This document shows, in pieces, positions 39,001-42,000 of a stretch of 64,000 nt of DNA. The DNA lies in assembly GCA_051362555.1 (NCBI GenBank), contig CM120640.1, positions 67,372,788 to 67,436,787 on the forward strand, in the 5' to 3' direction. Below the pieces are notes generated by a model. The model did not search any database. It was not told the DNA's origin and worked only from the letters and a program-made list of their open reading frames with translations. The stretch comes from Lingula anatina. Its lineage: Eukaryota > Animalia > Brachiopoda. Numbering within the stretch: the stretch's first letter is position 1; every line of letters starts with the position of its first letter. The position numbers and the translations under genes were made by a program.

Positions 39001-42000
39001 CTGTTATATACTGTATGTATATATGGCTTAATTATGCAAGTGCTCACTGTATATAATTGCTTTAAATTAACAATTTGATAATTTTCTTGCTTCTTTCTTA
39101 AATTGAAACTATGATTTTTCTATGGAATGGCATCAAATTTCATATTAAGTAATATTGTTTGAACACATCTTTCTCAAAATTAAAAAGATCAGTGCTTTAT
39201 AACCTTTTTAGGCATTAATGAGATAACAGACAGTGGTCACAGGAAAATACTCCAAAGAAAACCATGATTACACATTGATTTCATTTCTGTATAATTTTAT
39301 TTTAAAAATGAGAACATTTTTATAATGGTGGAACTGATCGATGATCAAAAATATCAGAGATTATAGTTGCAGTTATATGAAACAGTGTGTATTTCTTGAT
39401 TATAATTTGACATACATTTTTGTTAAAACCATTCAGTGCCTTGATCAAAAGATTCACTTAGATTTAATGCTATTAAAAGAGTAAAGGTGCTTTTACATGA
39501 TTTCAGATAGTTGTAGCATTTCTGTAGTGATTTGTGATTATTTCTCTCTCTAGGCCTGTGTCAACATCACAGTTCAAAGAGCATGTGGAGAAATACCACA
39601 GAGACTCAGATCTCTTGTTCTCAGATGAGTATAAGGTGAGTTGTAGGGCCAAATTTAGGCAAGTAAAGCAATTTTTAAACTTGAACAGTGCAATGTCTTT
39701 GCTAATGGTATCAAAAGTTTGCTGAATTATTACAGAAGTTAGGTAACAGATTAAGTAATATGTGAGACATTTATCTTGGCTATACTAGTGGTATTGCCTC
39801 CAGTATATGTCAAAGTCTTGCGATCAATAATACAGTGTTTCATCTAACAGTTCCTTATGACTGTATGCAATTTTAATTGACTGGTGAGTCTCGTTGAAAA
39901 TGGTTTTTATTTTAGTAGTAGTATTATTATAATAATTCAAATCAAGCCCTTCCTCACCTCCTAAAACTTGGTGCGAGATAATGTTTTAGAGTCATGTAAG
40001 TTTAACTGAAAAATGTTGTCTTATTTGTAATTTTAAATATCTTTTTTTTTTACCTGTCCCATCACTTTTCCTTAGTTGATCAAATTTCTAAGTCCAAGAT
40101 TTGGCTGTAATGAAGCTATCCATGAGGCCAACAGATGTAAAAACAGATTTACAAATATCCACCCATGTAAGGAAAAAATGGACACATGTAGCTATATATA
40201 TATATATGGAATGTGCATGCTTTGTCCTAAAACCTCCATTACCATTCTAATTTAAAAGTTTTATTTAAATGATAACTTTTTATTTTTATATCATTTACAG
40301 GGTAAGGGTTCATCCATTTTTATCATTTTCATAAGTCTACAAAAAGCATCCTTTTTCCAGGACCTCTCCCCCCTTCATAGAGTACAAAGTGAAAACCTAA
40401 AAATGATGACCTTTGTCAGCAATTTGAATCATCATTTTCAAGTATTTTTCGAAACAGAGGGAATTAACCTCTCTCTAAGGAGTATGGTTTGTAGACTTGT
40501 GAAAGTGAGGATAAAAATGGCTGACATCTTACTGACTTGGATGTATTTTTTAAAACAAATTGCCATTATTGTTGTTTTCAACAATGTATCTATGCAATTC
40601 GAAACAAAATGTTGGCAACCCTTCACTTGAAATATATATGGATTGTAACAACTTATTCACATTTAAATGCTTCCCATTCAGGTTTTATATTGTTTTACCA
40701 TGACAGCAAGCATTCAGCAATATTTAGCTTGAGGAGGAAATGGCATGCTGTATGTGCTCCACCCCATCCCCCACTGCCCTTACTGAAACTGGAATGTCCC
40801 TCAACCCTACAGAAATTTCCTATAGGATGTCCTTTGGGATTCTATGTCACACTATAGGAATCCTATAATACTTTGTAGGACTTCTTTCAGACATTTTAGG
40901 ACTCCTTAATAATTCTGTCGGATTTCCTATAGGATTTCGAGCCTATTTCCTTTAGGGTTCTATAGGACCCTATAGCATTTTGGGCCGATTTTCCTTAGGA
41001 CATACTGTAGGACCCTATAGGAAATTTCTGTAAGGGAAGGAATGGGTCAGTGCTTCTTACATATATAATGCTTACTTGCATGTTCTACAGACTGTTAAGG
41101 AGCTGGCACCTAGTTATGAATGGTTGGAAGCTGAGAAACCCAGCAATCGCTGTAAAAACAGATATACTAATATATTACCATGTAAGTGTATACTAATGTT
41201 GTACTGCCCTCTACTTGTCATTGTGGTTATTGAATGCCTTAATTACTAATGTGTTGCCCTGTGCTTGTCATTGTGTTCTGATATATGATAGTATGCAATT
41301 AAGTATGTTATTGTGTAGGAGTCAGTTAATAATCAATGCTAGTGGTGCTTAACATACAAGTAGAAGTTTTCTGTGTTTGTGATATGTCATGTTCTTCTAA
41401 TGTGTGTTTCTTTGTTGATTTACATTGAAATAATTTTTAGTGACTTATTCTTGTACTTGAGTGATTCAGCTGTCACCCACTTTTCAAAGACAAAAAGTCA
41501 TTTTCAAAATTAACGATGTTATTTTACTGAAGTCAATGTGTTCATGTATGAAATGGTATTTGTGAAGTTAAGTTGTAATGGGTTTGTTGGTAATTTGGAT
41601 TTAGACATTGGAGTAATTTTTATGTACAGACACAGATGTGTCTGTACATATTGCCATCACCTGCGTCTGTCGTCGCCGATGCCGATGGCGATGCCGATGC
41701 CGATGCCGATGCCGTCGCCGTGCACTTTCCTTGTAAACACGATAAGTGGAAGGCAGTTTTACTTTTTGGCTTTATATTTGCAGAGCTGATGAATATTCAT
41801 AAAACGCAGGTCAAGTTCGAAAATCAGCATGATCGGGCCATTATTGTAGAAGTTATGCTGTTTTTTCACTTTTCAGCATATTTTTCACATTTCCTCAGAT
41901 TCAATTCTTAGGCATGTTAACAGTCTCATTATTAAACTAATAAGATACGTAAAAGTTTTTGTTTGACATTTCCTGCATCTTTACAACATTGTTAGTTGAT

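Follow-up and report, generated by a model that had tools for sequence, protein, structure and literature searches.

The usual view of classical PTP domains is that they do not vary, and that gene duplication, location and extra domains are what tune their specificity. The closest described systems lie outside this class. ACP1 makes two isoforms from mutually exclusive homologous exons, with reported differences in substrates (PMC3785452, PMC4465641), and in MAPK14 (p38/CSBP1-2), MAPK9 and MAPK10 alternative homologous exons within the catalytic domain change both activity and substrate specificity (PMC1431701). The locus described here, in the brachiopod Lingula anatina, resembles ACP1 in being a tyrosine phosphatase with mutually exclusive homologous exons. 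ACP1, however, is a class II enzyme with another fold and one pair of such exons, whereas this gene encodes a classical receptor PTP with two pairs, one at the pTyr loop and a second, predicted one at the WPD loop; the MAPK genes differ in being kinases with one pair each as described (PMC1431701). In overall architecture the gene is like the R3 receptor PTPs (Ptp10D, PTPRB, PTPRJ, PTPRO), with FN3 repeats, one transmembrane segment and one PTP domain. The accessible text of the R3 survey (PMC5336234) recognises one R3 type in protostomes and mentions neither molluscs, nor splicing, nor any exon swap in the catalytic domain. A search of the open literature (subscription papers being outside its scope) found no report of mutually exclusive exons in a classical or receptor PTP domain. 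Databases already contain part of the picture, in the scallop isoforms discussed below.

The window, by which we mean the whole 64,000-nt stretch of DNA that was analysed, carries the gene on its forward strand, and the gene start precedes it. Exons for the ectodomain, made of FN3 repeats and a membrane-proximal domain, extend over 407..35900: of the 18 upstream stretches that were tested, 14 give a Pfam fn3 match, in several cases to half a domain, and no other family is the best above threshold for any of them. The ectodomain exon near 35815-35873 matches loose ends of RNA reads before the transmembrane exon (36100..36199), a hydrophobic stretch that RNA shows spliced to 37673; this single transmembrane segment, joined to cytoplasmic exons, is as in R3 receptors. 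RNA joints also define a juxtamembrane exon (37673..37777) and an optional 36-nt one (38567..38602), acidic, in frame and with a GC donor. The latter is both included and skipped in each of three RNA runs described below (X4, X7 and X9), and the X7 and X9 reads seem to start it a few bases earlier.

The PTP domain starts in a shared upstream exon (39554..39635; RNA joints, profile match) and continues, after the alternative exons of pair 1, in a shared downstream exon (44475..44551; FDHSRV...DYINANY) whose first 30 bases are seen as loose ends. Then follow exons at 44911..45045 (QGP, FWRMIW; Pfam Y_phosphatase, E 1e-16, with R3 members as best single-domain PDB matches), 45238..45360 (KCEQYWP; frame test and Pfam) and, beyond pair 2, 51165..51300 (the rest of the P-loop, AGVGRTG, and the Q-loop start; frame test and Pfam), and the predicted last PTP-domain exon at 58648..58714 (DQYIYIH; frame test and profile). 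Five downstream exons match Pfam Y_phosphatase, and 1a and 1b alone are too short for a Pfam match. No second PTP domain (D2) is present in the remaining 5.3 kb of the window, and the closest relatives stop after one domain. All four predicted exon combinations contain the HCSAGxGRTG P-loop, the WPD Asp and the Q-loop Gln, with the 13-residue catalytic motif and the Q-loop intact in each.

Exons 1a (40076..40166) and 1b (41091..41181) encode two copies of one segment, comprising the end of helix a2', the second-site loop, helix a1 and the pTyr loop, which reads KNRFTNIHP in 1a and KNRYTNILP in 1b. As the sequence-only reading had it, both are exactly 91 nt, phase 0-1; AG and GT flank them, and they are identical at 50 of 91 nucleotides and 15 of 30 residues. 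The same reading noted a shared NRCKNRxTNIxP preceded by some 18 mostly different residues, and the comparison agrees, with 10 identities in the last 12 residues and 5 in the first 18. When the last 12 residues of 1b are sought in six frames over the whole window, 1a gives 10 matches and the next best place 5; PTPRO has a 12-residue stretch identical to one in 1b. A profile that draws on relatives, with the window excluded, finds the pTyr-loop segment exactly twice (E 1.8e-5 and 1.8e-3, against a best background of 4.3), the WPD segment also twice, and a single copy of each remaining part of the PTP domain. With 1a or 1b alone, no stop interrupts the reading frame between the transmembrane exon and 58714. 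Inclusion of both leads to a stop at 41096-41098, and of neither to a stop in the exon at 44911, just as a frame shift had been anticipated for both cases. The two exons are hence adjacent, homologous, equal in phase and frame-incompatible together.

RNA data were available in nine runs under the species label, four of which (X1, X4, X7 and X9) were aligned to 36000-41600, each in part (6-30%), with a junction listing threshold of 3 reads from 2 starts per run. The junctions predicted for the two exons were recovered. Use of 1a (39635-40076; 18 upstream junction reads) is seen in X4 (17 reads) and X9 (1), with none in X1 or X7, and use of 1b (39635-41091; 19 reads) in X7 (10) and X9 (9), with none in X1 or in the window-like X4. 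On the downstream side, all six loose ends behind 1a in X4 (30 letters) are the first 30 bases of the 44475 exon, as expected from a 40166-44475 junction, and the same holds for the 13 behind 1b (X7 5, X9 8; 30 letters), as expected from 41181-44475, so each exon is joined in RNA to both shared neighbours. No joint from 1a to 1b (40166-41091) is among those listed, at a low depth at which fewer than 3 reads per run fall below the threshold, and with one row of loose ends outside the listing. X1, with 21 reads on the stretch, shows no joint to either exon. Mutual exclusivity and real use of 1a, which had been proposed from the letters, are supported by the junction reads together with the frame test, confirming that 40076-40166 and 41091-41181 are homologous, mutually exclusive, expressed exons of an R3-type receptor phosphatase.

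The choice between the two exons is real and sample-dependent, and their proportions differ sharply between samples: the 1a:1b ratio is 17:0 in X4 and 1:19 in X7 and X9 together (Fisher p ~1e-9; ~2e-7 on distinct starts). Both X7 and X9 were produced in one study, and their reads show many fixed differences from the window, so that tissue and lineage are confounded in this contrast. We weighed in this light the idea that 1a and 1b are both functional and nearly equivalent, the contrast reflecting lineage or genotype and not regulation. The origin of the 1b-using runs in one study, with their fixed differences, speaks for it. X9, however, shows both junctions, and some coverage of 1a is present in X7; 13 of the 18 residues of the second-site loop before the motif differ between exons that both keep the motif positions. 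We regard this account as unlikely. As a separate observation, X7 and X9 carry nine listed differences from the window in the 82-nt exon at 39554-39635 (about one base in ten), changing four residues; the runs share a species label, and X7 and X9 may stem from a diverged population or a cryptic species.

Both copies look old and maintained. Their fit to a profile of 28 relatives is almost the same (49.0 bits for 1a and 50.8 for 1b, near the low end, with 4 of the 28 relatives lower), both retain Lys3, Pro7, Ala14, KNR, Asn27, Ile28 and Pro30 (exon positions), and their distance from each other is typical of pairs of relatives (median 14, against the 15 of 30 given above). It is very improbable, and largely refuted, that 1a is a duplicate in decay which enters transcripts through leaky splicing. 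This idea could draw on the end branch of 1a, the longest in the exon tree (1.27), and on the relatives compared, which show no counterpart of 1a. Against it, all 17 upstream junctions in X4 use 1a, which has no stop codon, intact splice sites and a profile score equal to that of 1b. The exon tree is too short to date the pair-1 duplication, and a 1a+1b clade stays compatible with it (p-AU 0.39). A pair-1 swap was seen in none of 16 isoform or near-duplicate protein pairs of relatives, a weak test in that these are mostly paralogs, alleles and single models, and a protein search with exon 1a alone gave no candidate, which is weak evidence as well. A metagenome scan yielded 80 loci; the 8 that matched the predicted domain best are sequences of spliced type from other groups, at no more than 53% identity, and show no relative's intron structure.

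What does the swap change in the enzyme? The Tyr/Phe difference had been assigned to the equivalent of PTP1B Tyr46, and alignment bears this out: the KNRF segment of a relative aligns with PTP1B 31-59 at equal lengths, with Phe at 46, and a second PTP1B entry aligns over 28-59, again at equal lengths. If the offset is extended, exon positions 3, 6, 11 and 29 would correspond to Arg24, Ala27, Cys32 and Ser50 of PTP1B, and Tyr20 and Phe52 of PTP1B would coincide with a Tyr and a Phe encoded by the flanking exons. Roles for Tyr20, Arg24, Ala27, Cys32, Tyr46 and Phe182 of PTP1B are described in PMC9266911. In these coordinates 1a and 1b have, respectively, Ser and Ala at 27, Cys and Trp at 32, Phe and Tyr at 46, and His and Leu at 50, and both have Lys at 24, a residue shared with 20 of 28 relatives; acidic residues number 2 in 1a and 4 in 1b. 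The larger change is that of the second-site loop, the equivalent of PTP1B 25-35. The second-site and pTyr loops are named as diverse and specificity-shaping in PMC2638020, which also warns that the second pocket is unpredictable from sequence alone.

The gene splices either 1a or 1b into a single catalytic domain, and we consider it probable that the two products are both pTyr phosphatases that differ in peptide preference and turnover rate. The second-site loop would provide the main functional difference, with Phe46 and His50 as further tuning.

Position 46 varies among relatives (Tyr in 20 of 28 close ones, Trp in 6 and Phe in 2), and the aromatic of the KNRY loop is kept here as Tyr in 1b and Phe in 1a; in PTP1B, Tyr46 can itself be phosphorylated. 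Trp at this place (KNRW) occurs in chelicerate and bryozoan members and in two unnamed ones (P0220, P0212, P0209, P0330, P0388, P0375). The His of 1a, at exon position 29, is found in 0 of the 28 close relatives. These two residues are the ground of an alternative in which 1a yields a form that is weak or holds on to its substrate, with turnover slowed or regulation altered by Phe46 and His50, so that the switch would set the level of activity and not the targets. Besides the absence of His29 from close relatives, this alternative can invoke the PTP1B trapping mutant, in which D181A/Y46F still binds substrate, and more strongly than D181A (PMC6663880); that effect of Y46F, however, is described there only on the D181A background. 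His occurs elsewhere, as an amphioxus R3 protein (P0208) carries KNRYTNIHP, the family profile gives 1a a score like that of 1b, and X4 uses 1a alone. We regard a weak 1a as an unlikely account, and two pTyr enzymes of different preference as the likeliest one.

Of the motif occurrences named in the sequence-only reading, those in Ptp10D, PTPRQ and PTPRB are confirmed. Ptp10D has KNRFTNILP, together with WPDFG, and is an active pTyr enzyme. PTPRQ sequences bearing WPE have KNRFPNIKP, PTPRB has KNRYNNILP, and KNRF is also present in worm DEP-1 and a sea urchin R3 (PMC5336234). The hint that the exons might switch the enzyme between phosphotyrosine and phosphoinositides did not find support. On this idea 1a, perhaps with 2a, would turn the enzyme towards phosphoinositides like PTPRQ, with which the gene shares R3 architecture and, in 1a, two features of the loop, KNRF and a basic residue before Pro (NIHP vs NIKP); fewer acidic residues in 1a and the automatic name PTPRQ-like carried by some relatives point the same way. 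The lipid preference of PTPRQ, however, is assigned to its WPE loop, where Glu-to-Asp alone makes a pTyr enzyme (PMC4322731, PMC3765866). A WPE loop of the PTPRQ type was looked for in both exons of pair 2 and is absent, 2a reading WPDHG and 2b WPDFG. A PTPRQ-like lipid switch is therefore improbable, since KNRF is also found in Ptp10D and Asp is kept in both WPD-loop exons. For annotation, the PTPRQ-like names on relatives suggest a lipid activity for which the sequence gives no support.

Downstream, exon 2a (45603..45757; 155 nt, phase 0-2) encodes the WPD loop, helix a3 and the catalytic HC, and exon 2b (48895..49046; 152 nt, phase 0-2) is predicted from profile, Pfam and the frame test to be its alternative. 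They share 26 identical residues, are frame-incompatible together, and by alignment carry PTP1B 179-182 and the catalytic Cys215; at the equivalent of residue 182, 2a has His and 2b Phe. A second duplicated pair would swap the WPD loop and raise the number of active-site versions to as many as four. A similar block is present in scallop, where two RefSeq isoform models (XP_069132606.1 and XP_069132613.1) are identical except for 30 differences in the WPD exon. Scallop isoform X2 is closer to 2a than to 2b (152 vs 123), and scallop isoform X1 is slightly closer to 2b (134 vs 121). A tree of 50 columns separates 2a from 2b and joins 2a, not firmly (80/92), to scallop isoform X2 and to Aplysia and chelicerate sequences, yet recent separate duplications of pair 2 stay compatible (p-AU 0.075 for a 2a+2b clade and 0.062 for a clade of the two scallop isoforms). 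Among the 16 isoform or near-duplicate pairs of relatives, 1 shows a pair-2 swap. With active-site loops swapped naturally on an otherwise identical scaffold, one gene would allow the parts played in substrate choice by the second-site loop, residue 46 and residue 182 to be compared in a 2 x 2 design. For annotation, models with a single exon at such positions miss an isoform. Among the relatives, P0274 and P0279 are single-exon ORFs like 2b in which WND replaces WPD.

The best single-domain PDB matches of the gene are PTPRB, PTPRJ, Ptp10D and PTPRQ, and PDB matches, relatives and tree all place its PTP domain nearest to those of R3 members. The most similar proteins found (~55-64% identity) carry names from Aplysia, Capitella, bivalves, a bryozoan and chelicerates; when one shared exon was used as the query, the 120 matches listed out of 650 were for the most part RPTPs of fish and amphioxus with two domains. 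The tree comprised 49 rows, with the two alternative blocks removed, and left out short fragments, the more distant PTPs (three were kept), vertebrate PTPRQ, PTPRO and fly Ptp10D. A clade of Ptp10D-like and PTPRB-like proteins (97/92) excludes the window gene, which sits, less firmly (87/88), among mollusc-named and unnamed rows. A second protostome R3 group lies outside that clade, with molluscs, annelids, bryozoans and chelicerates (P0205, P0231, P0168, P0209, P0220 and P0330 vs P0203 and P0237), and Capitella has one member of each group in the tree. A 112-residue fragment labelled Salmonella (P0283) looks like a piece of an animal PTP with a local duplication and is likely contamination.

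More tentatively, and with the odds against it, this R3 branch in molluscs and their kin may carry two ancient exon pairs that rebuild both walls of the active site, one through the pTyr and second-site loops and the other through the WPD loop. Up to four enzymes with distinct substrates would then arise from a code coupled to cell type, and the WPD-exon duplication would perhaps be as old as the mollusc-chelicerate split.

As to how the choice in pair 1 is controlled, a cell-type or stage factor would set the use of 1a or 1b, and transcripts with both exons or neither would be cleared by nonsense-mediated decay. Frame shift and decay could in principle suffice for exclusivity. Steric exclusion was ruled out, as the 924-nt intron between 1a and 1b is too long for a clash. 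A possible stem (40066..40176) pairs the acceptor tract of 1a with its donor (pair probability ~0.8; -16.1 kcal/mol). Such a stem is reached in 0.8% of shuffles, or ~0.1 after the 12 exons tested, and the purine-rich 1a donor pairs equally well with the 44475 acceptor (-16.4), so the stem is a weak lead. If formed, the stem would favour skipping of 1a unless a factor opens it.

The strong folding of the 1a-1b intron (z -11) was rejected as a structure of the splice sites, for it comes from two local hairpins that exclude them. These long hairpins, at 40302-40532 and 40805-41036, have no other copy in the window. Over the first, X4 reads run in both directions and have foreign loose ends, as would be expected of a repeat, possibly MITE-like, with copies elsewhere. 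An interspersed repeat family occupies 41617-44300 and 51386-53013 and recurs near 4300-8800 and 32850-33500; it starts with a short palindrome and contains tandem units of ~160, 340 and 400 nt.
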